A stretch of 64,000 nucleotides of DNA. It comes from Anaerolineales bacterium (GTDB lineage Bacteria > Chloroflexota > Anaerolineae > Anaerolineales > Villigracilaceae). Below the pieces are notes generated by a model. It ran no database searches, was not told where the DNA came from, and saw nothing but the letters and a program-made list of their open reading frames with translations. The position numbers were made by a program, and so were the translations under genes. The first letter of the stretch is position 1. Every line of letters starts with the position of its first letter. This document shows positions 4,147-47,727 of the stretch, one piece after another. Location of the stretch: the NCBI GenBank assembly GCA_035699125.1, contig DASSBC010000078.1:13603-77602 (forward strand), written 5' to 3'.

Positions 4147-4178
4147 GAATTAGGACTCCCGTTCTGTCGCGAACATTC

Positions 4179-5849: not shown

Positions 5850-5882
5850 TACTCTTTTCTCTATAAATGTAACGAATAGTAA

Positions 5883-7079: not shown

Positions 7080-7320
7080 TAACTTCCATCCTTGATTGAG
7101 AGCCAAATTCGAGGATCAGCCTCGTTGAAACAGGGGTCAATATCCTTACAGTTCTTCGGCAATGCCGTCTGCAATCGTATGCAGGACCTGGACAGTGGTA
7201 CCAACCTTTCCTGGAAAACCATGTCTGTGTAATTGCTCCATCCCCAACTACGTATCATCTGCTTTGTGAAGCCGGCATACTCACCAGCCCAACACATTCG
7301 AGTCGAGTAAGAGCAATGCA

Positions 7321-7350
7321 TTTTCAATACCTTAGGCACGACAGTATAAT
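7321..7350 (+). promoter_or_regulatory. Candidate sigma70-type promoter giving a leaderless gmhB transcript
   Basis: Perfect TATAAT at 7345-7350, only 6 nt before the gmhB ATG (7357). No purine-rich Shine-Dalgarno in between. Weak -35-like TTTTCA/TTTCAA lies 17-18 nt upstream. Confidence 0.35.
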
Positions 7351-7356
7351 GACCCT

Positions 7357-7914: not shown

Positions 7915-7925
7915 GCAGTCCGAAG

Positions 7926-8546: not shown

Positions 8547-8568
8547 TATAGTTTGTCCTTGATCAAGC

Positions 8569-9549: not shown

Positions 9550-9601
9550 GCTGCTCTCTCCAAAATTCTCAATCGATGATCGATGCGCCGAATTTTACGA
9601 A

Positions 9602-22645: not shown

Positions 22646-22713
22646 ACGCAGGTACCTTCTTAATTGACTGCTACAGATTTCTCGCCCCAGAGAAACATAA
22701 CATAGTGATAATC

Positions 22714-23790: not shown

Positions 23791-23942
23791 CAGGATTGCA
23801 CCGGGACGACGATGGGATGGACCGAGAGATCTAAGAATTCAGCCTCTTGCAGAGCATTATTATGGAGATAGTCAGCCAGCTTGGGCATTAGGCATAAATT
23901 TACTTTGTGAATCTTCTAATTAAGAAGATGAATGGAGAAACA

Positions 23943-24194
23943 ATGACAATACAAGATATTAAGGAAGTGATTCGGGTTTACATTCTCGAAGAGTTCCTCC
24001 CTGGGGAAAACCCGGCGGAGCTGACGGACTCGACCCCTCTGATTACTGGAGGAATCCTCGACTCGCTTGCCACGATAAAGCTGGTGGCGTTTCTTGAAGA
24101 GCGGTTTCATATCCAGATCCAAGCGCATGAGACGATGGTCGACTATCTAAACACCATCTCCGACATTGCGCAATTAGTCAGCTCCAAGCTATAA
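23943..24194 (+). CDS. Acyl/peptidyl carrier protein, DltC-like
   Basis: 83 aa from the ATG preceded by GGAGAAACA. Phosphopantetheine attachment motif GGILDSLATIKLVAFLEERF. The track ORF starts further upstream at GTG 23907. Confidence 0.8.
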   Translation: MTIQDIKEVIRVYILEEFLPGENPAELTDSTPLITGGILDSLATIKLVAFLEERFHIQIQAHETMVDYLNTISDIAQLVSSKL

Positions 24195-27124: not shown

Positions 27125-28381
27125 ATGAACGAACAACATGTAAAACAGAGAGCTTTTGTATCTGTGCTCGGAAACGTTGTTCTAGCCTTAATAGGGCTGA
27201 CGGTTGCACTCGGATCGGTAGAATTCCTGATGAGGACTTTTCCCAATTGGATCCCACCCGAGATAAGAGTGAATCCGCCAGCACGTCGTGTACATGCCTT
27301 CATAGATGAAACCTATGACTTAAGGCATTCTGACGGCGATCTGTTTTATCATATGCGGGGGAGTATTATACCTATTTCGCCCGATCATGATAAGGTGATC
27401 GCCCGTATACATATGATCACCGACGCCCACGGTTTTCGCAATTCTCCTCCGGAAAAAGCGACTTATCGCGTTGTTGCACTAGGCGACTCGTTCACCAGAG
27501 CTAGTGGCTCCGCGTTCTCCTGGACTCAAAAACTGGCCGAAAGTATGGGGAGTGATGTGCTCAACCTTGCGGACGTGGGTTTTGGACCACAGGATGAGTT
27601 AAAAGTATTACAACAGTATGGCGTGAAAAAGCAGCCGCAATGGGTGATCACAGCATATTTTGAGGGAAATGATTTATATGATGCCGCGGCGTATGAACAA
27701 GCGACGCCGTTCATCTTGCTCCGGTTTGGAAGATACATAGTAGATCGGAGTCTAGAAGCCTGGCATGAGACGAGCCAGGATGGGACTCAGGCTAAGGCAG
27801 CCCCAAACTTCCGCTATCCAATTCCGCTCACAATTAATGACAACGAGCTTGAGATGGCTTTTTTCTCGTACTATATCTCTTGGCTGTCTGCTGACCGGGA
27901 AGCAATCAAATTATCAAAAAATTACCACTTAACGACCGAGACAATGTTGCAAATGCAGGAGTTGAGTAAAACATCGAACGCTCATTTTCTGTTGGTCTAT
28001 GTGCCGTCGAAGGAACATGTTTATCTGCCATATTTGAAGAATGCCGATATTCTAGAACGCGTTTTTACAGACGTGCCTCGGATAGGAATGGACCAAGAAG
28101 GTTATCTACAATTCATGAAAGAAAGAGCAACGCCGGAACTCACCCGCCAGCACATGAATGATCAGGCTATGCTACTGGCTGACTTTGCGGTGGAGCATCA
28201 TTTATTCTTTCTTGACTTGACAAAAGCCTTTCAAGAAAAAGCAGGCGCAGGTGCAGAATTGTATTACCCTTTCGACACCCATTGGAACCAGATCGGGCAC
28301 AATTTGGCTGCTGAAACAATCTACAAGTACATTCAAACTAAACTCCACGGATATAGAAATGAAAATTTTGTGCCTAATTAA
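27125..28381 (+). CDS. Membrane-anchored SGNH-like protein of the AlgX/AlgJ/DltD type
   Basis: N-terminal TM anchor. VVALGDSFTRASG, YFEGNDLYD, and YYPFDTHWNQIGH (the DTHW motif typical of AlgJ/AlgX-type O-acyltransferases). Confidence 0.7.
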   Translation: MNEQHVKQRAFVSVLGNVVLALIGLTVALGSVEFLMRTFPNWIPPEIRVNPPARRVHAFIDETYDLRHSDGDLFYHMRGSIIPISPDHDKVIARIHMITDAHGFRNSPPEKATYRVVALGDSFTRASGSAFSWTQKLAESMGSDVLNLADVGFGPQDELKVLQQYGVKKQPQWVITAYFEGNDLYDAAAYEQATPFILLRFGRYIVDRSLEAWHETSQDGTQAKAAPNFRYPIPLTINDNELEMAFFSYYISWLSADREAIKLSKNYHLTTETMLQMQELSKTSNAHFLLVYVPSKEHVYLPYLKNADILERVFTDVPRIGMDQEGYLQFMKERATPELTRQHMNDQAMLLADFAVEHHLFFLDLTKAFQEKAGAGAELYYPFDTHWNQIGHNLAAETIYKYIQTKLHGYRNENFVPN

Positions 28382-29408
28382 TAACGAGGTAAAGCCAGAT
28401 GACCGGTGGCTGTGGAATTATCTGCCCTCGAATACAGACGAGGTGGATTTTGTGGTCGCCACCGGGGCGATAGATCGGTTTAAAAAATGGGGAAAACTCT
28501 TTACCTATTATCCAGCTTTTATGCGGGCAGGGTTCCATGCCTTTCGCAAAACCCGAAAAACCCCGTATGATTTAGTAATAGCCTGGGGAGGTCAAAATGG
28601 ATTTACGTATGCCTTCCTGAGAAGTATGTTCGGTCAGAAGACCCCGCCGCTGATCATCCTATCCTTCAATCTTCAGGGCGTGCTCAGCCACTTCCTTAGT
28701 TTGGCGCGATTTGGAATGCGTTCAGTCTCACGGGTGGTCGTCTTTACGCCTTCTGAAGTCGAGAAATACCGGCGAATGCTATCTCTCCCTCCCGAGGCGA
28801 TTTCCTACTGTCCTCATGGCTGGTATGACCCGATGCGCTGGTATGTTCCAGGGGAAACGAAGGAAGCAGCCGCCCTAGCCGGGAATGGAAGATTCGTTTT
28901 CACTTCTGGCCGTTCCTATAGAGACTACGAGACTCTGGCTCGTGCGGTTGAGGGAACCGAGGCGTGTGTTAAAGTTAGCAGCCGCCCGTTTAATATAGGC
29001 GGAGTAAAACTGCCCGGGAACATGGAATCCCTAGGATGGCTCGATTATCGGGTGGCACAGGACTACATGTATGAATCCAGTTTTTATGTGGTCCCCCTTC
29101 AGGGTATCGATTTCGCCGGCGGCGACAGCAGTCTTCTCCAGGCGATGAGCTTCGGCAAGGCAGTGGTGGCGACGCGCGCACCCAGTACAGAAACCTATCT
29201 TGAACACGGTAAGACCGGGCTGCTTGTGGAACCAGGCGATATAGAAGGAATGCGGCAGGCAATCCTTCATTTGTGGCGAAATCCAGACGAAGCCATAAGG
29301 ATGGGTAAAGAGGCAAGGCAACATTTTGAAGAGAATCACACGATGGATAAACTGGCACAACGCGTTTACGATGTCGCCCTCGAGGTCTATCGTGCTCAAC
29401 GTGGTTAG
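28359..29408 (+). CDS. GT4-family glycosyltransferase
   Basis: MKILCLINNE start. C-terminal ...GGDSSLLQAMSFGKAVVATRAPSTETYLEHGKTGLLVEPGD.... The track start at 28251 overlaps the previous gene by 131 nt; ATG 28359 overlaps it by 23 nt. Confidence 0.8.
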   Translation: MKILCLINNEVKPDDRWLWNYLPSNTDEVDFVVATGAIDRFKKWGKLFTYYPAFMRAGFHAFRKTRKTPYDLVIAWGGQNGFTYAFLRSMFGQKTPPLIILSFNLQGVLSHFLSLARFGMRSVSRVVVFTPSEVEKYRRMLSLPPEAISYCPHGWYDPMRWYVPGETKEAAALAGNGRFVFTSGRSYRDYETLARAVEGTEACVKVSSRPFNIGGVKLPGNMESLGWLDYRVAQDYMYESSFYVVPLQGIDFAGGDSSLLQAMSFGKAVVATRAPSTETYLEHGKTGLLVEPGDIEGMRQAILHLWRNPDEAIRMGKEARQHFEENHTMDKLAQRVYDVALEVYRAQRG

Positions 29409-30663
29409 TGCCAAGAACAAGCAGCTGCTGATCTGCATCCTGGTCCTGGCTGTGCTGATCCGCATACCGATTGCCGTCTTGATGGGAGATCAGATCACTG
29501 TTTTACCTGGTATTCAGGACCAGGTGTCTTATGATGCCTTGGCACGAAGTTTATTGGATGGACGAGGCTACAGTTTTACAGAAAAGTGGTATCCATTCAC
29601 GCCGGCTGATACGCCCACAGCTCACTGGTCTTTCCTTTATCCATTGTACCTGGCCGGAGTTTATGCAGTTACAGGACATCATCCCCTGGCTGCCAGGCTC
29701 CTCCAAGCGGTTGTGGGCGGCGCATTGCTGTGTTTACTTGTTTACAGAATAGGCCGTCGGGTGGCAAATGAAGAAACCGGGCTGGTTGGCGCTGGTCTGG
29801 CTGCAGTCTATGGATACTTTGTTTATTACAATGCAGCCTTAATGACAGAGACATTCTTCATTGTACTGATACTGCTAGCACTTCATCTAAGTTTAGAAAT
29901 CAAAGAAAGTCCTACACTGCTACGTTGGATCGGGCTTGGCATTTCGTTAGGCTTGGCGGGCTTACTCAGGCAGACAATACTTCTTTTCATTCCGTTTCTG
30001 CTGTTTTGGTTGTTTTTGGAGCTAAGAAACCGAGTCACTCACTGGTCACACTTTTCCATCCCGCTTGTCATCACCCTTCTCTTGATTGCCCCGTGGACTC
30101 TGCGCAACTATCTGGTATATCGCGAATTTCTTCTCTTGAATTCCAATGCCGGTTATGCTCTCTTTGCTTCCAACAACCCGAACCTCGGAACAGATTGGAA
30201 TAATGATGTAGTCGTAGTGCCAGTGCCTGGGGAGTTGCAAGGGCAAAATGAAGCGCAGCTCGATCGAGCCCTGACACGACGAGCGGTCGAATTCATCCGT
30301 GCAGACCCGGAACGTTATCTGCGGCTGACCCTCGATAAAACCCTTGAGTTTTTCTGGTTTTGGCCTTCTTCTGACTCAAGCCGAATCAGCAATCTGAACC
30401 GGGTGCTTTCTTTTGGCTTATACTTGCCGTTCATGCTTTTCGGGCTGTATATATCCCTCTCACGCTGGCGCAGCTTTGTAGTTCTGTATTTATTCATTTT
30501 TATACATACCACAATCCACCTGCTCTCCTGGCCTGCAGCAAGATATCGCCTAAGTGTTGACGCCGTGTCAATGGTCTTTGCCGGATTGGCCGTGCTTGAG
30601 CTTGCAAAACAATGGAAAAGCTGGCGTCGCGAGCTTCCCTTAACAGATAAACTCAGTTTTTGA
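29371..30663 (+). CDS. GT-C-fold glycosyltransferase, ArnT/PMT (GT39/GT83)-like
   Basis: Polytopic protein. First-loop motif IQDQVSYDALARSLLDGRGYSF, typical of PMT_2/ArnT-like proteins. The start is uncertain (ATG 29371, GTG 29392 or 29401; the track uses 29326). Confidence 0.7.
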   Translation: MSPSRSIVLNVVSAKNKQLLICILVLAVLIRIPIAVLMGDQITVLPGIQDQVSYDALARSLLDGRGYSFTEKWYPFTPADTPTAHWSFLYPLYLAGVYAVTGHHPLAARLLQAVVGGALLCLLVYRIGRRVANEETGLVGAGLAAVYGYFVYYNAALMTETFFIVLILLALHLSLEIKESPTLLRWIGLGISLGLAGLLRQTILLFIPFLLFWLFLELRNRVTHWSHFSIPLVITLLLIAPWTLRNYLVYREFLLLNSNAGYALFASNNPNLGTDWNNDVVVVPVPGELQGQNEAQLDRALTRRAVEFIRADPERYLRLTLDKTLEFFWFWPSSDSSRISNLNRVLSFGLYLPFMLFGLYISLSRWRSFVVLYLFIFIHTTIHLLSWPAARYRLSVDAVSMVFAGLAVLELAKQWKSWRRELPLTDKLSF

Positions 30664-30686
30664 AAAACATCGGTATCCAAGCGGAC

Positions 30687-31805
30687 ATGTCTTCAATCAC
30701 CACATCAACCACAGCCAAACCGCCGACCTTGAGCAAACGGTCAGAAAAATTGCTTACGATCATGCTAGCGTTTCTGAGCCCACTGTTGCTCATCGGCTTG
30801 CTTGAAAGTGCAGCGTATCTATGGGAGCGAAACCAGGCAAACAGCCTGTATGCCTGGGAGCTGGTTGCTTCACGCCGTATGGTCTGGGTGCAATATCCCG
30901 AACCAGGCGCTGGTTACACACTAATGAAGCCCGGCAGCCATTATGAATGGCAGCACATTTCTGTGGACATTAATTCTCGCGGCTTGCGCGGGCCAGAAAC
31001 AAGCTATGAAAAATCACCATCTACCTTTCGCATTCTCAATTTAGGCGATTCAGTCGTTATGGGTTGGGGAGTTCGAGAAGAAGATACGTACGGCCAGCAA
31101 CTGGAATCACTCCTGAATGAGACAGGCAGCGATAACATGCGATTCGAGGTTATCAATGCAGGGGTCCCTGGCTGGAGTCTTGACAATGCACTGGCATACC
31201 TCCAAGCCGAAGGCCTCAAGTATGAGCCAGACCTCGTAGTGCTGGATGTGACGATTGCCAACGACATCAACGGTAAAAGTGCCTTGCTGGCAGGTAATGA
31301 ACCCAAGTCACTTCGATGGCTAAGTGACCATACCTACTTCTGGCCTTTCTTACAAAGTCAAATGTCGTGGGCGAAGGCGCGCGCCGAAGGCAGAGACCGG
31401 GTCGACACAATTGATCCACCCACCAATCCGGCTAAGTACTTTCCCTTAGATCCGCAATCAGACCGGTGGACCGAACGCTGGAACACAATATTGGAAATCC
31501 ACCAACTGGCGACAGAGAACAATGCTCGTTTCGTATTGACCCTATTCCCACTGGAATTCCAGGCCTTGGACAAGACTTATTCGACGCTTCCCCAAGAGTT
31601 ATTTATGGGCAGGGCGGCTGAAGCTGGTATCCCGGCTGTGGATCTGCTGCCCGCCTTTCAACAGGCATGCAAAGAAAAGTCGGGCGGCGCCTGCCAACTG
31701 GAAGATCGTTACTTGTTTGCGGACGTCTGGATGCACCCCTCAGCCTACGGGAATCGTCTGACGGCGAATGAGCTCGAGCAAGTAGTTAAGGGATTGTTGC
31801 CATAG
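30687..31805 (+). CDS. Membrane-anchored SGNH/GDSL-like hydrolase or acyltransferase
   Basis: TM anchor LLTIMLAFLSPLLLIGLL. Block I ILNLGDSVVMGWGV, NAGVPGW, block III DVTIANDING, block V-like ADVWMHPSAYGN. Confidence 0.7.
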   Translation: MSSITTSTTAKPPTLSKRSEKLLTIMLAFLSPLLLIGLLESAAYLWERNQANSLYAWELVASRRMVWVQYPEPGAGYTLMKPGSHYEWQHISVDINSRGLRGPETSYEKSPSTFRILNLGDSVVMGWGVREEDTYGQQLESLLNETGSDNMRFEVINAGVPGWSLDNALAYLQAEGLKYEPDLVVLDVTIANDINGKSALLAGNEPKSLRWLSDHTYFWPFLQSQMSWAKARAEGRDRVDTIDPPTNPAKYFPLDPQSDRWTERWNTILEIHQLATENNARFVLTLFPLEFQALDKTYSTLPQELFMGRAAEAGIPAVDLLPAFQQACKEKSGGACQLEDRYLFADVWMHPSAYGNRLTANELEQVVKGLLP

Positions 31806-31833
31806 CTGGCTAAATTTGACAGAGGATCATTAG

Positions 31834-32979
31834 ATGGATTTTTCCTGGACAGAAGAACAACTTAAATATAAACAGGCAGTAATCGAGTTTGCCCAAAATG
31901 AATTGAATGAAGGGCTAATCGAACGCGACCGGCAGGGTGAGCTCGCGCGTGAGAATTGGAAGAAGTGCGCCAAAATGGGACTCCTCGGTCTGGCTATCCC
32001 GGAGCAGTACGGCGGCAGCGAGTCCGACATCCTAACCACGATGCTGGTTATGGAGGGTTTGGGCTATGGCTGCCGCGACAACGGGCTTATCTTTGCCATG
32101 AATGCGCAAATGTGGAGCGTCCAACATCCGATTCTTGCTTTTGGCACAGAAGCTCAGAAACAGAAATATCTCCCCGGCATGTGCAGCGGGGACTTGATCG
32201 GTGCACACGGCATGTCTGAACCCGACTCCGGTTCAGATGCCTACAGCTTGCATACACGGGCTAAGCGCACCAATGATGGATATGTCCTCAACGGGACGAA
32301 GATGTTTGTGAGCAATGCGCCCTTTGCTGATGTGTCTCTGGTCTTTGCCACGGTAAACCCGGAGAAGGGTATCGGAGGGGTCACTGCCTTTCTAGTGGAT
32401 AAGGGGACACCGGGTTTTCGAGTTAGCCAGAGTATCGAAAAGATGGGACTGCGCACCTCTCCGATGGGCGAGCTAATTTTGGAGGACTGTTTCGTGCCAA
32501 TGGAGAGCCGCCTGGGACCGGAAGGCGCGGGGCCCGCCATTTTTAATAGCTCGATGGAGTGGGAACGCAGCTGCATCCTGGGCAGCCACATTGGAGCGAT
32601 GGAACACCAACTCGAAGAAGCGATTCGGTACGCCCGGCAGCGCTCGCAGTTCGGCCAGAAGATCGGGAAGTTTCAGTCCGTTGCCAATCGCATTGCCGAC
32701 ATGAAACTCAGGCTGGAAACAGCGCGGTTACTTCTCTATAAGGTTGCCTGGCTCAAGCAGATGGGAAAACCAGCAGTTATGGAAGCTGCACTGGCCAAGC
32801 TGTATCTAAGCGAGTCTTTTGTCCAATCCAGCCTGGACGCGATCCGAACATACGGCGGGTATGGGTACATGACAGAACTGGAAGTAGAGCGTGACTTGCG
32901 AGACGCGGTTGGAGGGCTGCTCTACTCAGGCACATCCGATATCCAGCGCATGATCATTGCACGTTGGTTAGGGTTATAG
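31834..32979 (+). CDS. Acyl-CoA dehydrogenase-family flavoprotein
   Basis: 381 aa. GMSEPDSGSDA, ...GGYGYMTELEVERDLRDA..., C-terminal LLYSGTSDIQRMIIARWL. Confidence 0.85.
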   Translation: MDFSWTEEQLKYKQAVIEFAQNELNEGLIERDRQGELARENWKKCAKMGLLGLAIPEQYGGSESDILTTMLVMEGLGYGCRDNGLIFAMNAQMWSVQHPILAFGTEAQKQKYLPGMCSGDLIGAHGMSEPDSGSDAYSLHTRAKRTNDGYVLNGTKMFVSNAPFADVSLVFATVNPEKGIGGVTAFLVDKGTPGFRVSQSIEKMGLRTSPMGELILEDCFVPMESRLGPEGAGPAIFNSSMEWERSCILGSHIGAMEHQLEEAIRYARQRSQFGQKIGKFQSVANRIADMKLRLETARLLLYKVAWLKQMGKPAVMEAALAKLYLSESFVQSSLDAIRTYGGYGYMTELEVERDLRDAVGGLLYSGTSDIQRMIIARWLGL

Positions 32980-32980
32980 T

Positions 32981-34462
32981 ATGAGCCGAAACTTCATTTT
33001 TTACGCTCTTGTCATCGCCATTTTTGGCTCGCTGTTGTGGTTTGTGTTCGATCAGGGCGCAAAGCTCGATGTCATCCAATCTCCTCCAACAGTCACAGGG
33101 GAAACTGGGGAGGCTATGGATGGGCAGAATCCTGATACGATCACAACTTCTCAGCCTAGCGTAATTATCGCGTTCATTAGAGACTTGTTGGCAAACTTGG
33201 AGCACCCGCTTAGTCTGCTCTTGAGCCAAATTGTCATTATAGTAATACTTTCGAGGCTTCTTGCCTCCGTTATGGGCAAAATCGGCCAGCCAATGGTGAT
33301 CGGTGAAATTATCGCTGGGATTTTGCTTGGACCTTCCGTCCTGGGCTACTTCTGGCCAGGGGTGAGTAATTTCATATTTCAGGCCGGGTCCCTGCCAAAC
33401 TTAAACTTTCTGAGCCAATTGGGACTGATTCTCTTCATGTTTATCATCGGTCTGGAATTGGATATCCATCTGTTAAGACGTAAAGCGCACACAGCTGTCG
33501 TTGTCAGCCATGCCAGTATTATTATCCCCTTTACGATGGGTGTGAGCCTGGCTTACTTCCTGTATGTTCGCTTTGCCCCAGAGCATATCTCGTTTCTGGC
33601 CTTTGGTTTATTTATGGGCATTGCAATGAGTATCACCGCGTTCCCCGTGCTGGCTCGTATCCTGCATGAGCGCGGCCTGACCAAGACGGCGCTGGGTAGC
33701 CTTGCCATCACTTGCGCGGCCGCCGACGACGTCACCGCGTGGTGTATCCTGGCAGCCGTGATCGCTATTGTTCAAGCCGGGAGTTTTGTCAGCGCTGTAT
33801 TTACAGTTGTCCTCTCCATAGTGTATGTCATCACTATGTTGAAGCTGGTGCGGCCCTGGTTGGAACAACGAGAGACTCAATATGCAAGCACTGAGAGCCT
33901 GAACAGGACGTTCGCTGTCATTTCTTTCGTCGTCTTGTTTCTATCCGCTCTCACGACCGAAGTGATCGGCATTCATGCCTTATTTGGCGCATTCCTGGCG
34001 GGCGCGAGCATGCCGGCACATGCAGGTTTCAGAAAATTATTGGCGTCGAGGATTGAAGATGTTAGCCTGGTGATCCTGTTGCCACTGTTTTTTGCGTTTA
34101 CCGGGCTCAAGACTCAAATTGGGTTGTTGCATGACGGACTAACCTGGCTTGTCTGTGGGCTGATTATCGCCGTGGCAGTCGTAGGCAAGTTTGGCGGCAG
34201 CTTGCTGGCAGCCAAGTTTACCGGTCAATCGTGGTCTGATTCATTTGCCATCGGGGTGCTAATGAACACGCGCGGGCTCATGGAGCTGATCGTGTTAAAC
34301 ATTGGTTATGACTTGGGCGTGCTCTCGCCGACCGTCTTTACGATGATGGTCCTGATGGCACTCGTCACAACCTTTATGACCGCTCCCGCGTTGTACTGGA
34401 TTGAACGTTTCCGCTGGAAATCAGAATCGGTGAGTGCAAAGTCGTTGCCGGAAAGACTCTAA
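32981..34462 (+). CDS. Cation:proton antiporter, CPA2 (Kef/NapA-like) family
   Basis: 493 aa, about 12 TM helices. QPMVIGEIIAGILLGPSVLG and ...FIIGLELD..., typical of Na+/H+ exchanger family proteins. The ATG begins 1 nt after the dehydrogenase stop. Confidence 0.85.
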   Translation: MSRNFIFYALVIAIFGSLLWFVFDQGAKLDVIQSPPTVTGETGEAMDGQNPDTITTSQPSVIIAFIRDLLANLEHPLSLLLSQIVIIVILSRLLASVMGKIGQPMVIGEIIAGILLGPSVLGYFWPGVSNFIFQAGSLPNLNFLSQLGLILFMFIIGLELDIHLLRRKAHTAVVVSHASIIIPFTMGVSLAYFLYVRFAPEHISFLAFGLFMGIAMSITAFPVLARILHERGLTKTALGSLAITCAAADDVTAWCILAAVIAIVQAGSFVSAVFTVVLSIVYVITMLKLVRPWLEQRETQYASTESLNRTFAVISFVVLFLSALTTEVIGIHALFGAFLAGASMPAHAGFRKLLASRIEDVSLVILLPLFFAFTGLKTQIGLLHDGLTWLVCGLIIAVAVVGKFGGSLLAAKFTGQSWSDSFAIGVLMNTRGLMELIVLNIGYDLGVLSPTVFTMMVLMALVTTFMTAPALYWIERFRWKSESVSAKSLPERL

Positions 34463-34504
34463 AGCATCAATTCGGCTCATCAATAAAATGGAGGTATATA
34501 TACT

Positions 34505-35821
34505 ATGTACGATGTCATTATTATAGGTGGAGGTCCAGCAGGATCGACGTTGGGATCTTACCTGTCAAAGGCTGGGATCAAGAATCTGATCTTGGATGGA
34601 CATAACCATCCACGTCCCCATGTGGGCGAGTCGCTGGTGCTTTCCACCATGAGAGTCTTCGGCGAGCTCGGGCTGATCGACAAAATGGATCAGGCAGGAT
34701 TTCCCAAGAAATTTGGCGCTTCGTGGCGCGATTTCAACGGGAAGGAGCAGGCATTGCACTTCTCGGAATTTCGCCAGGAAGGTATCGAGCGTGATCATAC
34801 CTATCACGTGGACCGGTCAAAATTTGACCTGATACTGCTCAAGCACGCCGAGAGTTTGGGTTCTGAGGTTCACCAGGGCGTGCAGGTGAAGCGTGTCAAC
34901 TTTGTTGACGATCAAGCCATCGGGGTCCGGGCAAAGTTCGCCGGACAGGAGATCGACATCCCCGCTAAAATTGTCGTGGATGCCAGCGGCCGGCAAACGC
35001 TTCTGGGACGTCAGTTGAATCTGAAACAGAACGACAAGATTTTCAACCAGTACGCGGTCCATGCTTGGTTCGAAAATGTGGCACGCGGCGAAGACCCGAA
35101 AACAGCCGACTATATCCATATCTACTTCCTGCCCGTCAAGCGAGGCTGGGCATGGCAGATCCCCATTACAGACACGATCACGTCCGTGGGCGTAGTAGCC
35201 GAGCGCGAAGTCTTTCAACAGTTTAAGACTGAGTCGGAGCGCTACTTCAATACCTATGTTCAATCCAACAAGGGCCTCGCACAGGCGATGGCCAATGCGG
35301 TGCGCCTCAACGATTTCAAAACGGAAGGTGATTACAGCTATATCTTGGACAAGTTCTGTGGCAACGGTTTCCTGATGGTTGGTGATGCCGCCCGTTTTGT
35401 CGACCCAATCTTCTCCTCGGGAGTCAGCGTCGCTATGCACAGCGCTCGGTTTGCCGCGCAAACCATTCAGGCGGCATTGGAGTCGGGCGACCTTAGCGAA
35501 GCGGCATTCAAACCTTACGAGACCACGCTGCGATCCGGCGTGAATATCTGGTACGAATTCATCCGCCTTTACTATAAACTGCTCCCCCTCTTTACACTCT
35601 TTATCCAGAGTGAATACCGGGTGGAGATCTTGCGCCTGCTACAAGGCGAGGTCTTCAATCGAGAGGATGTACGCGTACTAAACGTGATGCGCCGTTACAT
35701 CGAGGTGGTCGAGAACAACGAGGGACACGTGTTCCGCGGGCAGCTCAGCGACATTCCAATCGATGACATCTTGAAACAGGTCGAAAACGATTCGAAGGCT
35801 GAGCAACAAATCGAAGCTTAA
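34505..35821 (+). CDS. FAD-dependent oxidoreductase with flavin-dependent halogenase signature motifs
   Basis: MYDVIIIGGGPAGS (GxGxxG), HVGESL, AGFPKKFGASW (candidate catalytic Lys), GWAWQIPI (WxWxIP), GDAARFVDPIFSSGV (FxxPxxSxG). Confidence 0.75.
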   Translation: MYDVIIIGGGPAGSTLGSYLSKAGIKNLILDGHNHPRPHVGESLVLSTMRVFGELGLIDKMDQAGFPKKFGASWRDFNGKEQALHFSEFRQEGIERDHTYHVDRSKFDLILLKHAESLGSEVHQGVQVKRVNFVDDQAIGVRAKFAGQEIDIPAKIVVDASGRQTLLGRQLNLKQNDKIFNQYAVHAWFENVARGEDPKTADYIHIYFLPVKRGWAWQIPITDTITSVGVVAEREVFQQFKTESERYFNTYVQSNKGLAQAMANAVRLNDFKTEGDYSYILDKFCGNGFLMVGDAARFVDPIFSSGVSVAMHSARFAAQTIQAALESGDLSEAAFKPYETTLRSGVNIWYEFIRLYYKLLPLFTLFIQSEYRVEILRLLQGEVFNREDVRVLNVMRRYIEVVENNEGHVFRGQLSDIPIDDILKQVENDSKAEQQIEA

Positions 35822-35850
35822 AAAGAATTTTACCAACCTGAGGAGTATCC

Positions 35851-36531
35851 ATGCCGCATGTGATTGTCTTTGACTTGATGGGAACCCTGTTGGACCTCCG
35901 GGCTATGGATTCGCACTTCGAGCGTTTCTTCGGAGATGCCGACGTACGAAAAGAGTGGTGGAGTCAAACCTTGCAGTTAGCGATGGCAGCTGTGGTCACG
36001 AACGCCTACGAAGACTTTGCAGTCTGTGCAGATACAGGGCTAGAAATCACAGCCCGACGCTACAAGGTCTCCATGCTAGGCGAAGAGAAAAACCTGATCC
36101 TGGGCACACTGCAAAAGCTGCGACCCTTTCCCGAGGTCGCTCAGAGTCTCCAGCGCTTGCGTGATGCCGGATTAAGGCTCGCCGTGTTGACGAATTCGAC
36201 GGCAAAGACAGCCGAAGCGCAGCTGGCTTTCGCTGGGCTGCGTGATCAGTTCGAACAGGTAATCTCGGGCGACGAGATCCAGTGCTTTAAGCCGGCGCCT
36301 GAAGTCTATCAATTGGCTGCCAATCAGCTGAATGTGGAGCCGGGACAAATGCGACTGGTTTCCACCCACGATTGGGACCTGACAGGCGCACTACGAGCCG
36401 GGTGCGCGGCAGCATTTGTCGCCCGGCCGGGCCAGGTCATGAATCCCTTTGGTCCGCAGCCGGATGTCAGAGGGGCAGATTTAGCCGATGTCGCCGACAA
36501 AATTTTGGCAATCGAGCTCGAGCAAAGTTAA
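35851..36531 (+). CDS. HAD-superfamily hydrolase, type II haloacid dehalogenase-like
   Basis: 226 aa. VIVFDLMGTLLDL (nucleophile Asp, no Asp at +2), VLTNST, FKPAPEVYQLA, VSTHDWDLTGA. Confidence 0.7.
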   Translation: MPHVIVFDLMGTLLDLRAMDSHFERFFGDADVRKEWWSQTLQLAMAAVVTNAYEDFAVCADTGLEITARRYKVSMLGEEKNLILGTLQKLRPFPEVAQSLQRLRDAGLRLAVLTNSTAKTAEAQLAFAGLRDQFEQVISGDEIQCFKPAPEVYQLAANQLNVEPGQMRLVSTHDWDLTGALRAGCAAAFVARPGQVMNPFGPQPDVRGADLADVADKILAIELEQS

Positions 36532-36543
36532 GATTATTTGACT

Positions 36544-37395
36544 ATGAAAGATAATGCACTGACAATCCCATCCAACCTACCCCGTACTCGCCGGGAAGCC
36601 TCCAAGGGCTGGGCATGGCCCAAATTCCGTGAGTTATGGGAGTATAGAGAACTGCTCTTTTTCTTCGTCTGGCGCGACATCAAAGTACGCTACAAGCAGA
36701 CCGTACTGGGTGCAGCCTGGGCTATCATCCAGCCTTTTTTCACCATGGTCATCTTCAGCCTGTTTTTTGGTCGACTGGCACAAGTCCCATCAGATGGACT
36801 GCCCTATCCGATCTTCAGCTATGCTGCCTTGGTCCCCTGGACGTTCTTCGCCACTGCGCTCACGCAAGCGTCTAACAGCCTGGTGCTTAGTGCAAATATG
36901 GTGAAGAAGATCTATTTCCCTCGCCTGACCTTACCTATTGCAACGGTGCTGGCGGGTGTCGTTGACTTTGTGCTGGCATTTGTCGTGCTAATGGGTATGA
37001 TGCTCTTTTACGGCCTGACGCCCACGATCAATGTGCTCTGGTTGCCCCTTTTCTTGCTGCTGGCTCTTGTCACTTCCTTGGGAGTCTCGCTCTGGCTCTC
37101 CGCCATGAACGTCCAGTTCCGCGATGTTCACTATACCATCCCTTTTCTGACCCAGGCATGGTTATTTGTCACGCCGATTGCCTATCCCAGCAGCTTGCTC
37201 TCAGAGCCCTGGCGAACCCTGTACGGGCTGAACCCAATGGCCGGTGTCGTCGAAGGGTTTCGCTGGGCGTTGCTGGGCACAGATACCGCGCCAGGGCCTA
37301 TGACACTCGTCTCCGCTGTGGTTGCGTTGATCTTGTTCGTCGGTGGTGCGTTTTACTTCCGGCGCATGGAACAAAATTTTGCAGATGTACTGTAG
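36544..37395 (+). CDS. ABC-2 type polysaccharide/polyol-phosphate export permease (Wzm/TagG-like)
   Basis: About 283 aa, six hydrophobic helices. Typical N-terminal ...LWEYRELLFFFVWRDIKVRYKQTVLGAAWAIIQP.... The track start at TTG 36538 is two codons upstream of the ATG. Confidence 0.8.
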   Translation: MKDNALTIPSNLPRTRREASKGWAWPKFRELWEYRELLFFFVWRDIKVRYKQTVLGAAWAIIQPFFTMVIFSLFFGRLAQVPSDGLPYPIFSYAALVPWTFFATALTQASNSLVLSANMVKKIYFPRLTLPIATVLAGVVDFVLAFVVLMGMMLFYGLTPTINVLWLPLFLLLALVTSLGVSLWLSAMNVQFRDVHYTIPFLTQAWLFVTPIAYPSSLLSEPWRTLYGLNPMAGVVEGFRWALLGTDTAPGPMTLVSAVVALILFVGGAFYFRRMEQNFADVL

Positions 37396-37404
37396 GGAAA
37401 GTCG

Positions 37405-38667
37405 ATGAGCAATCTAGCGATTGAAGTTGCCAGACTGGGCAAAGAGTACCATATTGGCGGCCCGCAAAAGAGTTACCACCGCCTAACCGATCAACTGGCG
37501 GATGTAGTTGCGGCCCCCTTCCGGCGCGCAGGTAAGCTTATGCGCGGCCAGGCAAACGGGGCGGCCGAGCTCAATGAAAGGATATGGGCTATCAAGGATA
37601 TTTCCTTCCAGATCAAAACAGGTGAGGTAGTGGGTATTATTGGACGCAACGGTGCGGGCAAAAGCACGCTGCTCAAAATTCTGTCTGGCATCACCGATCC
37701 CTCGGAAGGCTATGCCGACCTCTATGGCCGGGTTGGCTCCTTATTGGAAGTGGGCACAGGCTTTCACCCGGAACTCACCGGACGCGAAAATATTTTCCTG
37801 TACGGAGCCATTCTCGGGATGAAAAAGGCAGAGATCGAGCGCAAGTTGGATGAGATCGTAGCCTTTGCAGAAGTTGATAAATTTCTCGATACACCGGTCA
37901 AGCATTACTCGAGTGGCATGTATGTGCGCCTGGCTTTTTCGGTGGCAGCTCACCTCGAACCAGAGATCCTGCTCGTAGATGAGGTACTGGCTGTGGGCGA
38001 CATGGCGTTCCAGCGTAAATGCCTGGGTAAGATGGACGACGTAGCCCAGGAAGGGCGCACGGTGGTGTTCGTCAGCCATAACATGGGCCTGCTACAACAG
38101 TTGTGCGAGCGCGGCATCTTCCTCCAGAAGGGCACCGTTCACACCGATGGATCCATTGCCGAGGCTGTCGATGCTTATCTGCAAACCCTTGAGCAGACGA
38201 AAACGCTGGATCTTTCCGAACGCACAGACCGAAAGGGGTTGGGAAACGTCAGGCTCGTCGCCGCAAATGTGACCAATGGCTCGTCAGCAATCTTGAGAAC
38301 CGGACGCCCGGCGCGCTTTATTTTTCAAGTCGATTCCCTTGCCCCCGGTTTAGCCTGCAATTTCCATGTTTACGATACTATTGGTCAGCCCGTGACGAGC
38401 TTCCAGAGTCGGGTACATGGTCCGGAAGACTCAAGCGATTCTGGAAATGGTCTAAGGTTCGTATGCGAGCTGGATGAGTTGCTGCTTCTACCGGGTCGCT
38501 ATCGTGTGGATGTGGCAATTATCGGCGACAATCGTCTGCAAGATTTCATCGAAGCTGCCACAGTTTTCGAAGTTGCAGAAGGCGACGTTCGTGGCCGCCC
38601 GGTCCAGCCGGACGGAAAGTTCAGCGTTAGCATGTCGCATCGCTGGACGCTGCCTACCGATCGCTGA
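37405..38667 (+). CDS. ABC polysaccharide export ATP-binding protein (Wzt/TagH-like) with extra C-terminal domain
   Basis: Walker A GRNGAGKSTLLK, signature YSSGMYVRLAF, Walker B ILLVDEVLAVGD, plus about 170 extra C-terminal residues (beta-rich; a Wzt_C-like position). Confidence 0.9.
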   Translation: MSNLAIEVARLGKEYHIGGPQKSYHRLTDQLADVVAAPFRRAGKLMRGQANGAAELNERIWAIKDISFQIKTGEVVGIIGRNGAGKSTLLKILSGITDPSEGYADLYGRVGSLLEVGTGFHPELTGRENIFLYGAILGMKKAEIERKLDEIVAFAEVDKFLDTPVKHYSSGMYVRLAFSVAAHLEPEILLVDEVLAVGDMAFQRKCLGKMDDVAQEGRTVVFVSHNMGLLQQLCERGIFLQKGTVHTDGSIAEAVDAYLQTLEQTKTLDLSERTDRKGLGNVRLVAANVTNGSSAILRTGRPARFIFQVDSLAPGLACNFHVYDTIGQPVTSFQSRVHGPEDSSDSGNGLRFVCELDELLLLPGRYRVDVAIIGDNRLQDFIEAATVFEVAEGDVRGRPVQPDGKFSVSMSHRWTLPTDR

Positions 38668-38690
38668 GGCATTCGCGCTGAGCTAGGGTT

Positions 38691-39995
38691 ATGAATAGAC
38701 TAAGAATACATCGCAAAGAGACATTTTATTTGGGCATCATTCTGATTGCCGTCGGAATTTTGCTGCGCTGGTTGATCGAACGAACACTTGTATCCGATGG
38801 TCAAATCGAGTCTTCGCTTTACAGGGACTCAATTTTTGTCTTTCAAATTCTGGTGATCGTGGTTGGGGCATTCTTAGTTCTGCGGCAGCCAGCGATCAGA
38901 CCTCCCAAAAGGAGTGAGATCGTTCTGGTATTGTTCAGCACACTCATGACGTTCCTTTTGCTAGAGATGATGTCCAGAGTGTGGCTGAACTACCTGGCTA
39001 CACCAGATCAGTATGATCGCTATGTTTTGTTTACAAGCCTCGACTCCAGCGAATACGCCTGGATGCCTCATCCGTACCTCGGTTATTACCCAAACCCAAA
39101 TTACAGGAAGGGACAAACGTCTCATAACTCATTAGGCTACCGCAGTGATGAATTTCCTTTGGAAAAACCAGACGGTGTGTATCGTATTGTAGCTCTAGGT
39201 GGATCTTCCACTTATGATGTTAGCATCAAGGATAATCAAAAGACGTTCACGGCCCAACTCGAGAAGCTGCTCAAGGATGAATACGGGTATCAGAACGTGC
39301 AGGTTATCAACGCTGGAGTCCCGGGCTACAACTCTTGGGAGATCCTGGCAAACCTCGAATTTCGTGTGTTGGATCTTGATCCGGACCTGGTCATCATTTA
39401 TGAAAATACCAACGATGTTCATGCCCGCCTAGTCCTACCCGCTGCATATCAAAGTGACGATTTGGGCAGGCGCCAGGCGTGGCAAGTCCCCGATGTGGCA
39501 CTCTGGGAGCACAGCGCGTTGCTGAGGATTTTGAGCAGGTCCTTGAACATCACACGCCAGGTGTCCGTCGATGATTTTGCCAGCGCGCCCACGTATGTAA
39601 GCTGGCCATTTGAATCTCGCCTGGAGGAATTCGATCTAGATCCAGCGGAAATCTTAAGGAAAAATCCTCCAGTCTATTTCCGCCGAAATTTGGAAAACAT
39701 GATCGCGGTCGCCAAAGAACACGATGTAAAGATTCTGTTTTCGACCTGGGCGTATTCACCGTATCTTCATGATTACGCATCCGAGGATTATTACCAGGAA
39801 GGGTTTCGGGAGAATAATGATGTCGTTAGGGAGGTGGCCTCGAGCCATGCCATTCCCCTCTTCGATTTTGTAGAGGTGATGCCGAAAGACGCCAAATATT
39901 GGGCCGATGGACGCCATGTCAATGAGGCTGGTGCTTTGGTGAAGGCCAGGCTTTTTGCCGAGTTCGTTGACGCCCAAGGATTGATTGAGAAGTAA
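38691..39995 (+). CDS. Membrane-anchored SGNH-like protein (divergent block I)
   Basis: Two N-terminal hydrophobic helices. IVALGGSSTYD (GGS in place of GDS), NAGVPGYNSWE, IIYENTNDVH, WADGRHVNEAG (DxxH). Confidence 0.6.
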   Translation: MNRLRIHRKETFYLGIILIAVGILLRWLIERTLVSDGQIESSLYRDSIFVFQILVIVVGAFLVLRQPAIRPPKRSEIVLVLFSTLMTFLLLEMMSRVWLNYLATPDQYDRYVLFTSLDSSEYAWMPHPYLGYYPNPNYRKGQTSHNSLGYRSDEFPLEKPDGVYRIVALGGSSTYDVSIKDNQKTFTAQLEKLLKDEYGYQNVQVINAGVPGYNSWEILANLEFRVLDLDPDLVIIYENTNDVHARLVLPAAYQSDDLGRRQAWQVPDVALWEHSALLRILSRSLNITRQVSVDDFASAPTYVSWPFESRLEEFDLDPAEILRKNPPVYFRRNLENMIAVAKEHDVKILFSTWAYSPYLHDYASEDYYQEGFRENNDVVREVASSHAIPLFDFVEVMPKDAKYWADGRHVNEAGALVKARLFAEFVDAQGLIEK

Positions 39996-40086
39996 TCCAC
40001 GCCGGCTTCCTACTCAGTTCACGTCGCATACGTGAACAAGCCAGGGTGTCTTCTCGACCAGACGAATGGTGAGGAGGACTTAACGT

Positions 40087-41547
40087 ATGAAAATCATGCA
40101 GGTTAAGACAAGCCGGGTAAAAGTCGGGGCGCTATTCATGATCGTAACGTTGGCAGCAAGCGTTTCATGCCAGCCGACCACAGTCACTGTTACCCAGGAG
40201 GTCACCCGCGAAGTGGAAGTGACAGTCTTAGTGACTCAGCCAGCTGGGCAAGAACCCAATCAGAAGACAAAAGAACCATCGGCCTCGGCCGGCGAAACGG
40301 TCATGCCCCAAAAAACAAAAGAGGCGCCAATTCAACTAGTCCTGCCAGCAACTGAGCATGTGGGCATTGCACCATACCCTGACGCTCCGCTCTGCCCGGA
40401 CACGGGAGAAGCGCATGACCACAGCCTGTTTCATACCCTCTGGGATAACACGCGTGGCTGCCACTATGACCATGAACACGGTCAGGATCCTTTTACATCG
40501 GAGGTCGCGGCGGCCTTTCCTGGCTTCGATTTGCGGGCGCTGATCGGTGGCGTAGGAGTTGGGCATACCAATCCCTCCTCGCCGATGGAAAATACACACA
40601 AGCACGGTGGCTTCAAGTGGGATGTGACACTTTCTCACTCTGTGGGCTGCGTTGGCGGTGAGGGCTATCCGACAGGTGTGGATGCTATGGCAATTCAATA
40701 CCATGCCTTTGGGGATTACTCCATCGAGTTCGAGTCGCGCACCCATAGTGCAGTCGGACTCTTGCGCCAATGCCAGGCAGGCAATCCCACCGACTTCGGT
40801 TATGTGTTCGTCAACCAGTTGCAGGACTATGGCCAACGTGTAGCACCTTATCAGGGCAGTGTCCTCCCCTATCCAGACACACCCAATCCTGCGTATGAAG
40901 GCGCCCGCGCGCCTTACTTTAGTGTGACCTGTTTTGGGACCACATCATTCTGTAACAAGTTCCCTTCCTTAGAGGCCTTCTTAAGCCAGGACAACAGCGC
41001 CTCTTCGACGTGGGTTTCGGATCCTGGCAAGCTGACCGACTCCGGCTCGCATCTCTTTGCCCTGCTGTTCCGGGTGCGGGACAACTATCAAATCCTGGAT
41101 GACAGCGATCAGACCTATCCCTTTACCTTTGCCTGGTTATGCTCGGCGGATGGGGGCAAGAGCTATAGCGCGAAGCCCGGCTGCCCTTACAATAATACGA
41201 CCACGCGTGTGCATGAGGTGATGGGTGAGATTCCTCTCGACTGGGATAACTTGGCCGGGTTCGATACTGATCCTAGACATGGCCGGATCACCGCCGAGGG
41301 GTACGTGACTCGCTTTGGCGATCTCAATCAATCTTGCGCCGCACCCGGCACGGACTGCCACCCTATCAAGCTCGTACAGGCATTTACCGGCCAGTATGCT
41401 TCCCGATTTTCTCTAGTGCCCGGTGAGAAGGCCAGTTTCTCGGCGGCAAACCTGCCGGAACGAGATATCTACTTCTGCAACGGTGTTCCATGCTCGGAGA
41501 GTGACCCAGGTGCGGTGTCCTCGGGCTGGATTGGGCCGAGCAACTAA
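40087..41547 (+). CDS. Secreted Cys/His-rich protein of unknown function
   Basis: 486 aa. Strong SD (GAGGAGGA, 8 nt upstream). Signal peptide ending ...LAASVSC. Thr/Val/Glu-rich spacer, then a domain with 12 further Cys and His clusters (GEAHDHSLFH, GCHYDHEHG, NTHKHGGF). No family recognised. Confidence 0.6.
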   Translation: MKIMQVKTSRVKVGALFMIVTLAASVSCQPTTVTVTQEVTREVEVTVLVTQPAGQEPNQKTKEPSASAGETVMPQKTKEAPIQLVLPATEHVGIAPYPDAPLCPDTGEAHDHSLFHTLWDNTRGCHYDHEHGQDPFTSEVAAAFPGFDLRALIGGVGVGHTNPSSPMENTHKHGGFKWDVTLSHSVGCVGGEGYPTGVDAMAIQYHAFGDYSIEFESRTHSAVGLLRQCQAGNPTDFGYVFVNQLQDYGQRVAPYQGSVLPYPDTPNPAYEGARAPYFSVTCFGTTSFCNKFPSLEAFLSQDNSASSTWVSDPGKLTDSGSHLFALLFRVRDNYQILDDSDQTYPFTFAWLCSADGGKSYSAKPGCPYNNTTTRVHEVMGEIPLDWDNLAGFDTDPRHGRITAEGYVTRFGDLNQSCAAPGTDCHPIKLVQAFTGQYASRFSLVPGEKASFSAANLPERDIYFCNGVPCSESDPGAVSSGWIGPSN

Positions 41548-47619: not shown

Positions 47620-47677
47620 TCAAGGTTTTGCTGAAAGCATCTCATGGATGTCTTTAGTCCGTCATCGTAGTTGCCTT

Positions 47678-47705
47678 GCGACGCATTTGCGTCGCCGCAT
47701 TTTAG
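47678..47705 (+). terminator. Candidate intrinsic terminator/attenuator upstream of the protease gene
   Basis: GC-rich 7-bp stem GCGACGC / GCGTCGC with loop ATTT (47678-47695), followed by CGCATTTTAG. Confidence 0.35.
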
Positions 47706-47727
47706 AACTCATAGAGGAGAACAAACA

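Follow-up and report, generated by a model that had tools for sequence, protein, structure and literature searches.

The four-gene block at 31834-36531

We analysed a stretch of 64,000 nucleotides (the window) from an Anaerolineales bacterium (assembly GCA_035699125.1, contig DASSBC010000078.1, positions 13,603 to 77,602), and focus here on four tightly packed genes at 31834-36531, which lie inside a polysaccharide locus and are candidates for a role in the acylation of a surface glycan. All four are open reading frames (ORFs) on the plus strand, each started by ATG; they encode 381, 493, 438 and 226 amino acids (aa) and are separated by gaps of 1, 42 and 29 nucleotides (nt). The first gene (31834-32979) encodes an acyl-CoA-dehydrogenase-like (ACAD-like) flavoprotein with all three ACAD Pfam domains, predicted to be an L-prolyl-S-carrier-protein dehydrogenase. 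It is followed by genes for a cation:proton antiporter of the CPA2 family (32981-34462; Pfam Na_H_Exchanger, TIGR00932), an FADH2-dependent halogenase of the PltA/Mpy16 clade (34505-35821; Pfam Trp_halogenase and FAD_binding_3) and a type II HAD protein of the L-2-haloacid-dehalogenase family (35851-36531; TIGR01428).

The block is flanked by genes on the same strand. Directly upstream of the ACAD lies the gene for a membrane-anchored SGNH protein (30660-31805; Pfam Lipase_GDSL_2), and downstream are Wzm (36538-37395; Pfam ABC2_membrane) and Wzt (37405-38667; Pfam ABC_tran and Wzt_C) of an ABC-type glycan exporter, the latter with a C-terminal carbohydrate-binding domain. A first-pass annotation of the same DNA had described four packed genes with these coordinates, gaps and SGNH and Wzm/Wzt flanks, and the ORFs and Pfam matches bear this out.

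Predicted enzymes of proline loading, oxidation and halogenation

The locus contains a stand-alone adenylating (A) enzyme of the L-proline type (15100-16671, plus strand; Pfam AMP-binding, TIGR01733). Its best single-domain match in the PDB is PltF (6O6E; E 1e-98). The Stachelhaus code, extracted by alignment to GrsA-PheA, is DLLYLALVCK; as an internal check, the GrsA reference gave the expected DAWTIAAICK at the canonical positions. The same code is common to 119 of 123 aligned relatives (120 database homologues and three from related loci). It agrees with the consensus L(L/F)YLALVC of stand-alone L-proline A enzymes (PltF, RedM, CloN4, AnaC and others), which differs from the modular Pro code (PMC3874040). 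Extraction of this code had been proposed in the first reading of the DNA, and because of it we assign proline loading to the enzyme. Some close homologues are named L-proline--[L-prolyl-carrier protein] ligase by JGI. The protein homologue search with the A enzyme returned close metagenomic relatives only and no named reference enzymes, and the exact string DLLYLALVCK had no match in literature full text.

The 83-aa carrier protein (23943-24194, plus strand; Pfam PP-binding) is the sole carrier protein in the window. The phosphopantetheine serine is Ser41, within GGILDSL, and the PDB matches include PltL (E 3e-8), the Bmp1 carrier domain (6CXT_A) and DltC (6BUG_A; E 3e-5). Identity to the counterparts in loci from other lineages is 55-81%. 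The ORF spans 23907-24194, with the ATG at 23943 as the likely true start. The best NCBIfam model is ACP_for_OlsHI (ornithine lipid biosynthesis acyl carrier protein; 120.2 bits, cut-off 130). Among the annotated genes of the locus no OlsH or OlsI homologues were noticed, and an ornithine-lipid reading of the carrier was dropped, since the OlsH/OlsI pathway relies on a GH3-like enzyme together with an alpha/beta hydrolase and shares nothing with the locus. Both the A enzyme and the carrier protein, which the earlier reading had placed at 15100 and 23943, are present and have matches of the type II nonribosomal peptide synthetase (NRPS) kind.

The best PDB match of the ACAD-like flavoprotein is AnaB (4IRN; E 6e-138, 52.9% identity over 380 ungapped columns), followed by PigA (5ZW0; E 8e-100, 43.8% identity) and 6CXT_B (E 7e-96), which is Bmp3 (PMC10849742). 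True acyl-CoA dehydrogenases begin only at E 4e-84 in this ranking. Glu244 sits in a MEWER motif that is identical to the aligned AnaB segment, and this Glu is the catalytic base conserved in AnaB and Bmp3 (PMC10849742). The C-terminal motif is YSGT, compared with YEGT in enzymes of the medium-chain acyl-CoA dehydrogenase (MCAD) type, and the MCAD-type Glu is not present. The top NCBIfam models are PigA (447.9 bits, equivalog cut-off 500) and RedW (409.3 bits, cut-off 650); because both scores lie under the equivalog cut-offs, we consider the protein a member of the family, and not an orthologue or equivalog of PigA or RedW. A position inside the ordinary acyl-CoA dehydrogenases, which had been raised as the alternative, is not what we find, as AnaB, PigA and Bmp3 are the nearest among the solved relatives and the catalytic Glu is kept.

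The halogenase is closest to Mpy16 (5BUK; 444 bits, E 7e-132, 52.2% identity), PltA (5DBJ; 428 bits, E 4e-127, 48.4% identity) and ChlB4 (7FCO; 427 bits, E 8e-127). More distant scores are those of CndH (~200 bits), Bmp2 (178 bits) and digeranylgeranyl-lipid (GG) reductase (89 bits). The protein contains the motifs GGGPAG at position 8, FPKKFG at 66, WAWQIP (WxWxIP) at 215 and FVDPIFSSG at 298, and PltA and Mpy16 have the identical FPKKFG segment in the region of the catalytic Lys. Two segments, of 10 and 5 residues, that PltA, Mpy16 and ChlB4 all have are absent from the protein in the window (between residues 75/76 and 81/82). A grouping with geranylgeranyl reductases or other non-halogenating flavoproteins, the second alternative raised earlier, does not hold either, given the 427-444 bits to halogenases that act on carrier-tethered substrates and the presence of the motifs. 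A tblastn search of plasmids with the halogenase found cyanobacterial homologues only.

The first-pass annotation had pointed out that the locus holds the four enzyme classes of halopyrrole pathways, and the identities of the A enzyme, the carrier, the ACAD and the halogenase are all supported by sequence. We have high confidence that this cassette makes a (halo)pyrrolyl- or dehydroprolyl-S-carrier. AnaB, the closest solved relative of the ACAD (52.9% identity, compared with 43.8% for PigA), reportedly stops at a two-electron oxidation, and therefore the acyl group could be dehydroprolyl rather than pyrrolyl, a point that weighs against a pyrrole product. If the ACAD were an AnaB-type enzyme of this kind, a dehydroprolyl (pyrroline-carboxyl) group would be transferred, and the halogenase would act on that group or on another substrate; the many related loci that have the ACAD without any halogenase would fit such a scheme. 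However, the halogenase falls in a clade whose substrates are aromatic acyl-S-carrier species, the top NCBIfam models of the ACAD are those of the pyrrole-forming PigA and RedW, and the same catalytic Glu serves RedW, PltE and Bmp3 in the four-electron oxidation that yields pyrrole (PMC10849742). We consider the two-electron scheme very unlikely.

The two remaining products of the block are less readily connected to a carrier-bound acyl group. The CPA2 antiporter matches PF00999 (E 1e-57) and TIGR00932 (156 bits, under the subfamily cut-off of 238), and has no KTN/RCK domain. The HAD protein scores 165.9 bits with TIGR01428, above the equivalog cut-off of 125.4; its top PDB matches are all L-haloacid dehalogenases, with DehRhb (2YML; E 2e-37) as the best. 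The nucleophile Asp8 lies in FDLMGT, the phosphatase DxD motif is not present, and motif inspection indicates that K147, Y153, S171 and D176 are kept. Relative to L-DEX, T114 replaces Ser and H173 replaces Asn. His173 aligns with the His of DehRhb, the partner Glu of which is Gly in the HAD protein.

Among 28 related loci of at least 7 kb, 17 contain a PltA-type halogenase. CPA2 is found in 11 of these 17 loci and in one of the 11 others, the lone exception being L028, a locus with a different halogenase and a CPA2 of 36% identity; the HAD gene is found in 7 of the 17 and in none of the 11, and was seen only directly after the halogenase. These co-occurrence counts are indicative only, because they include close relatives and truncated contigs and are not independent. 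With that limit, CPA2 and HAD are accessories of the halogenase. An antiporter role in ion, pH or halide homeostasis is a guess, as is a role of the HAD protein as a dehalogenase-type hydrolase; a pyrrole chloride would not be an evident substrate for such an enzyme.

A chance insertion of ordinary metabolism genes, encoding a short- or branched-chain acyl-CoA dehydrogenase, a GG-reductase-like protein, a housekeeping antiporter and a phosphatase, would also be compatible with the generic Pfam names (ACAD, FAD_binding_3, Na_H_Exchanger and HAD). The TIGR02032 GG-reductase model does score the halogenase at 146.6 bits, though this is below the cut-off of 158.8. Against such an insertion, the HAD protein lacks DxD and scores above the haloacid-dehalogenase equivalog cut-off, and the ACAD is linked to A and carrier genes in many loci, a linkage not seen for ACAD homologues of at most 45% identity. 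We regard it as highly implausible, and we rejected a beta-oxidation or isoprenoid-reductase reading on the basis of the placements of the ACAD and the halogenase, the halogenase motifs and the linkage to A and carrier genes.

The MBOAT-SGNH protein, its locus and its relatives

Starting 10 nt past the carrier gene, a gene at 24204-27113 (plus strand) encodes a membrane protein of 969 aa, which we assign to MBOAT-SGNH on the basis of a structure model and a profile match. It comprises an MBOAT-like domain (residues ~150-640) and a C-terminal SGNH domain (~690-965). An AlphaFold2 (AF2) model built from a diverse alignment has a pLDDT of 86.8 and a pTM of 0.84; an earlier model from a shallow alignment (pLDDT 63) gave clear Foldseek matches for the SGNH domain only. 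With the better model, the best PDB matches in Foldseek are DltB (8JEM and 6BUG; E ~1e-6, TMt 0.57-0.67), then HHAT and PORCN, and the C-terminal domain matches SGNH esterases of the TesA/Axe2 type. By sequence, the protein had no match in the PDB, either alone or as a 29-sequence profile. A tblastn search with its core led to genes annotated as 'MBOAT family O-acyltransferase', one of which belongs to a dltD-MBOAT-AMP-ACP operon carried by a plasmid of Klebsiella electrica, and alignment of the family profile with this Klebsiella MBOAT by hhalign gave a probability of 95% (E 3e-8, 175 columns).

In an alignment of 56 sequences (35-49% identity), N426 (in WRRIN), H469 (in TWFFH) and H941 are invariant, and S744 (in GPSF) and D939 (in WDKHP) are at least 90% conserved. 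The C-terminal domain contains the block I Ser744 and the block V Asp939/His941 of SGNH proteins, and Lipase_GDSL_2 matches 39 of the 56 family members. Because of the profile match, the conserved residues and the AF2 and Foldseek matches, we identify the protein, as modelled, as a fusion of a divergent DltB-like MBOAT with an SGNH domain, comparable to DltB joined to DltD. For the MBOAT and SGNH enzymes that the first-pass annotation had invoked, the fold and the SGNH domain are supported, but the MBOAT part is not recognised by Pfam and is fused to SGNH. The family is large: among 1.84 billion cluster representatives, 671 clusters at 50% identity have E <= 1e-30 and 1615 have E <= 1e-3. The clusters with E <= 1e-30 are mostly 830-970 aa long, and the database labels are mostly hypothetical, with a few AlgI or DltB.

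The Klebsiella electrica operon (NZ_CP041250.1; L018:2518-3636) is compact and Dlt-like, with dltD, MBOAT, AMP-binding and ACP genes, and is flanked by insertion sequences. Its MBOAT has WRRFH, but GAWNG opposite TWFFH(469) in the pairwise alignment, so that the Asn/His arrangement is reversed compared with the family from the window.

Including the fusion, there are five SGNH/AlgX-type proteins in the locus, all encoded on the plus strand. Between the A and carrier genes lies that of a membrane-anchored SGNH/AlgX-like protein (22705-23790; Pfam Lipase_GDSL_2 and ALGX), a DltD/AlgJ-like candidate acyl relay with an N-terminal hydrophobic anchor visible in the translation. An AlgX-like SGNH protein is encoded at 27125-28381 (Pfam ALGX, E 3e-14), and a further membrane SGNH protein downstream of the exporter at 38691-39995 (Pfam Lipase_GDSL_2, E 1e-19), in addition to the one that precedes the ACAD. 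The N-terminal anchors of the SGNH proteins are preceded by basic residues, which suggests that the domains are extracytoplasmic.

From 12805 to 58013 every gene is on the plus strand. This co-directional glycan locus of ~45 kb and the divergent genes at 956-11110 together form the polysaccharide locus. According to Pfam, the window encodes a priming sugar transferase, many GT2 and GT4 glycosyltransferases, two PMT_2 proteins and one Wzy_C protein, and also a carbamoyltransferase, a sulfatase, BNR proteins and a BY-kinase-like protein. In a scan of 28000-40500, promoter-like and terminator-like sites around the block were not enriched over shuffles. The divergent arm (7357-9549 and 4179-5849) contains a SIS-domain isomerase, a HAD phosphatase and a GHMP kinase, a heptose-/sugar-phosphate-type precursor set, and a 556-aa radical SAM protein adjoining glycosyltransferases. 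Inside the co-directional operon are a sulfatase-family gene (43029-44408) and the gene for an 805-aa subtilase (Peptidase_S8; 47671-50088). Two large ORFs, 40087-41547 and 46018-47619, are without any Pfam match.

The set of A enzyme, carrier, ACAD and MBOAT-SGNH protein recurs in glycan loci of Chloroflexota, of Cytophagia-type metagenome-assembled genomes (MAGs) and of a cultured Microvirga. Wherever the flank of a related locus is long enough, the ACAD is found together with the A, carrier and MBOAT-SGNH genes, and this holds for loci from three phyla. The SGNH gene directly precedes the ACAD in the loci of Anaerolineales type that were examined, and this pair is kept in L005, L007, L009, L016, L019-L026 and L036. 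The A, carrier, MBOAT and SGNH genes were also found together in L013, L016, L017, L019, L020, L028, L044 and L045. A scan of metagenomes with the ACAD as anchor showed A and/or carrier homologues beside the ACAD homologues of at least 49% identity wherever flank exists, whereas ACAD homologues of at most 45% identity belong to ordinary multi-ACAD clusters without A or carrier genes.

Around this core the arrangement varies. Five MAGs of Anaerolineales/Chloroflexota (L005-L009) have the order SGNH-ACAD-CPA2-halogenase-HAD-Wzm-Wzt. A contig of 763 kb (L016) has carrier-A-MBOAT/SGNH-GT1-PMT2-SGNH-ACAD-halogenase-Wzm-Wzt, with no CPA2 and no HAD. Three metagenome contigs carry ACAD-halogenase-HAD (L019), ACAD-CPA2 followed by a truncated halogenase homologue of 93% identity (L020), and an ACAD followed directly by Wzm, with no halogenase (P0033). 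In an unclassified bin (Bin_13; L013) the order is A (65% identity), CPA2 (52%), two halogenases (63% and 46%), ACAD (55%), a membrane protein (49%), carrier (55%) and two more membrane proteins, and the set adjoins a GT2 gene, three sulfotransferase genes and one O-methyltransferase gene; the loci L011 and L012, from Cytophagia MAGs, are shorter fragments of this arrangement. On a megaplasmid of Microvirga sp. VF16 (L017), ACAD (57%), A (53%) and carrier (62%) genes are divergent from MBOAT/SGNH (38%), without a halogenase, and the surrounding glycosyltransferase, priming-transferase and BY-kinase genes resemble an exopolysaccharide cluster. The first-pass annotation had asked whether the block is absent from otherwise syntenic loci. 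The ACAD proves to be part of the core, but the block is not one indivisible unit: the halogenase is optional, and CPA2 and HAD are accessory. Related loci would run the same acylation system without this optional halogenase module.

Some of these loci have additional features. The Microvirga stretch (plasmid pMVF16-2, NZ_CP069356.1, 689417-730172) comes from a cultured alphaproteobacterium and is unannotated in PLSDB. L013 (6722-21264), L011 and L012 contain up to three tandem MBOAT-SGNH paralogues with 45-50% identity to the protein in the window, and two PltA-type halogenases side by side. In an Anaerolinea MAG, an extra insert lies between HAD and wzm (L007:12058-18117). Within it are genes for another A enzyme of the Pro type (code DLFYLALVCK; 46% identity), another carrier, a divergent halogenase (30% identity) and an NRPS-like protein of 868 aa that matches condensation and carrier/thioesterase regions. 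A comparable A2-halogenase-CP2 set occurs in L028.

The linkage bears on whether the acyl group leaves the carrier for a polymer at all. In every characterised case the same four enzyme classes make small molecules (PltF/L/E/A; Bmp1-4 for tetrabromopyrrole), SGNH folds include the thioesterase TesA, and the insert in L007, with its order of A, carrier, C-T-TE protein and halogenase, resembles a small NRPS pathway. The enzymes in the window could accordingly make a free halopyrrole or feed an unlinked pathway, with a TesA-like SGNH protein as thioesterase and an incidental position in a glycan locus. In contrast to such pathways, however, Pfam finds neither a polyketide synthase (PKS) or NRPS partner nor an alpha/beta-hydrolase thioesterase in the window, and the carrier gene abuts the DltB-like gene, a linkage that recurs in three phyla and always with glycan genes. 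The anchors of the SGNH proteins, with their suggested extracytoplasmic domains, also argue against a cytoplasmic thioesterase role. Altogether, we find a free product unlikely.

A Dlt-like reading and its known counterparts

We hypothesize that a Dlt-like, carrier-dependent system acylates a surface glycan with (halo)pyrrole-2-carboxyl groups and that the four genes serve as its tailoring arm; we consider this reading somewhat more probable than all others together. The A enzyme would activate L-proline and load it onto the 83-aa carrier, a step for which the inference is strong. The ACAD would then oxidise the prolyl-S-carrier to pyrrolyl-2-carboxyl-S-carrier, presumably in a four- rather than a two-electron oxidation. 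In an optional step, the halogenase may halogenate the pyrrole on the carrier, with FADH2, O2 and halide as cosubstrates. The likely position is C4/C5, because in its active-site segments the enzyme hardly differs from PltA and Mpy16, which dichlorinate. The 969-aa protein would receive the acyl thioester at its DltB-like MBOAT domain, and the acyl group would cross the membrane to the fused SGNH domain and the four anchored SGNH/AlgX-like proteins. These SGNH proteins are predicted to esterify the glycan that is built by the glycosyltransferases of the locus and exported by Wzm/Wzt.

We propose membrane transfer and esterification of the glycan by analogy with DltA-D, AlgI/J/X and PatA/B; the proposed oxidation state, halide, number of halogens, direction of transfer and acceptor are likewise modelled on the Dlt, Alg and Pat systems. 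That the (halo)pyrrolyl or dehydroprolyl group ends on the exported glycan is a conclusion of moderate confidence. The suggestion in the first-pass annotation that an oxidised or halogenated acyl group decorates the glycan therefore stands as regards the enzyme identities and the linkage, and the halopyrrole on the glycan itself stays an inference.

Several observations weigh against this reading, in addition to the reported behaviour of AnaB and the dependence among the 28 loci. The source is a soil or sediment MAG of an uncultured member of the Anaerolineales (Chloroflexota). The Pfam MBOAT model did not match the 969-aa protein or three homologues even at E <= 10, and PF03062 matches none of 56 diverse family members at E <= 0.01. 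H469 lies 43 residues past the WRR motif, about where MBOATs have the His of the WHG motif, and is a candidate equivalent of the catalytic His of DltB. No DltX-like peptide was identified, although no systematic search was made. As for the halogenase, ChlB4, an equally close relative, acts on a non-pyrrole tethered aromatic acid, and the enzyme depends on O2, whereas anaerobes are common among the Anaerolineales. No flavin reductase was noticed in the Pfam annotation of the window, though no search aimed at one was made; PltA-type clusters are often without a flavin reductase of their own.

A Dlt-like outward transfer could also serve another molecule of the envelope instead of the exported glycan, for example peptidoglycan, a glycolipid or a glycoprotein produced through the PMT_2 proteins. 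The acceptors of MBOAT/SGNH systems are diverse (lipoteichoic acid, alginate, peptidoglycan and cellulose), the locus contains two PMT_2 (GT-C) genes and a Wzy_C/ligase-like gene, and there is no Wzm/Wzt within the flank of L011-L013. But wzm/wzt directly adjoin the genes of the ACAD and the halogenase in those Anaerolineales loci that were examined, and Wzt bears a glycan-binding C-terminal domain. We consider a different acceptor rather unlikely and retain the exported glycan as the preferred acceptor.

In a wider form, the proposal would be that a large, unrecognised MBOAT-SGNH family of at least 671 clusters accepts acyl groups from carriers dedicated to it and decorates surface glycans of bacteria with proline-derived pyrrole esters, halogenated in many Anaerolineales and in some Cytophagia-type MAGs; this we put forward tentatively, with somewhat less than even confidence. 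If true, it would join carrier-tethered halopyrrole biosynthesis, known only from small-molecule antibiotics and signals, to the Dlt-type acylation of polymers, known for D-alanine, a combination that we did not find described in the literature searched. The surface glycans of bacteria would gain a further kind of acyl group, aromatic and halogenated, and the MBOAT-SGNH proteins would be delimited as a large family so far without annotation. The halogenase, CPA2 and HAD would form a dedicated accessory module. Abundant bacteria of soil, sediment and sludge would then be a source of a new class of natural organohalogen that is polymer-bound, with a bearing on the origin of natural organochlorine and on the substrates of organohalide respirers where Chloroflexota are abundant. 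The cultured Microvirga with the halogen-free version and the four soluble enzymes offer handles for study. Neither a surface polysaccharide that is halogenated or acylated with pyrrole nor an A/carrier/ACAD/MBOAT-SGNH system was found described in the literature searched; subscription journals were mostly outside the search, so this is weak evidence.

The cassette has its closest likeness in the thiotemplated halopyrrole systems (PltF/PltL/PltE/PltA, Mpy, Bmp1-4, RedM/O/W, PigI/G/A and AnaC/D/B), with which it has in common the A code, a small carrier, an ACAD with the catalytic Glu and a halogenase of the PltA/Mpy16 clade. Unlike those pathways, the window has no PKS, NRPS or thioesterase to take the acyl group onward; instead, the carrier gene abuts that of the MBOAT-SGNH protein in a polysaccharide export locus. 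For the halogenase and CPA2 pairing, the sole parallel that we found is in the fluorinase (fl) clusters of Streptomyces cattleya and relatives, which contain a conserved putative cation:H+ antiporter, flH (PMC9173684), although the halogenation chemistry of the fluorinase, which depends on S-adenosylmethionine, is unrelated.

The transfer logic resembles that of the Dlt system (DltA, DltC, DltB and DltD), in which an A enzyme, a carrier, an MBOAT and an SGNH-like extracytoplasmic transferase act in succession on a surface glycopolymer, and a Wzm/Wzt exporter (TagGH-like) adjoins the genes in the window. Dlt places D-alanine on teichoic acids, whereas the amino acid here is predicted to be proline, oxidised (and halogenated) while tethered; moreover, the MBOAT and SGNH parts are fused in the window, with WRRIN where the Dlt-type MBOAT has WRRFH. 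MBOAT and AlgX/SGNH transferases also act together in AlgI/J/F/X (alginate), PatA/PatB (peptidoglycan) and WssH/I (cellulose), to which the ALGX proteins at 22705 and 27125 are a further likeness. In contrast to the system proposed here, those move acetyl from a cytoplasmic donor, without a dedicated A enzyme or carrier. A chemical precedent is CloN1-N7 of clorobiocin and coumermycin biosynthesis, where a Pro-derived pyrrole-2-carboxyl thioester is converted to an ester on a sugar hydroxyl. In that pathway the soluble CloN2 and CloN7 transfer the group to noviose, which is part of a small antibiotic in the cytoplasm, while the predicted acceptor in the window is an exported polymer, reached via a membrane MBOAT-SGNH protein.

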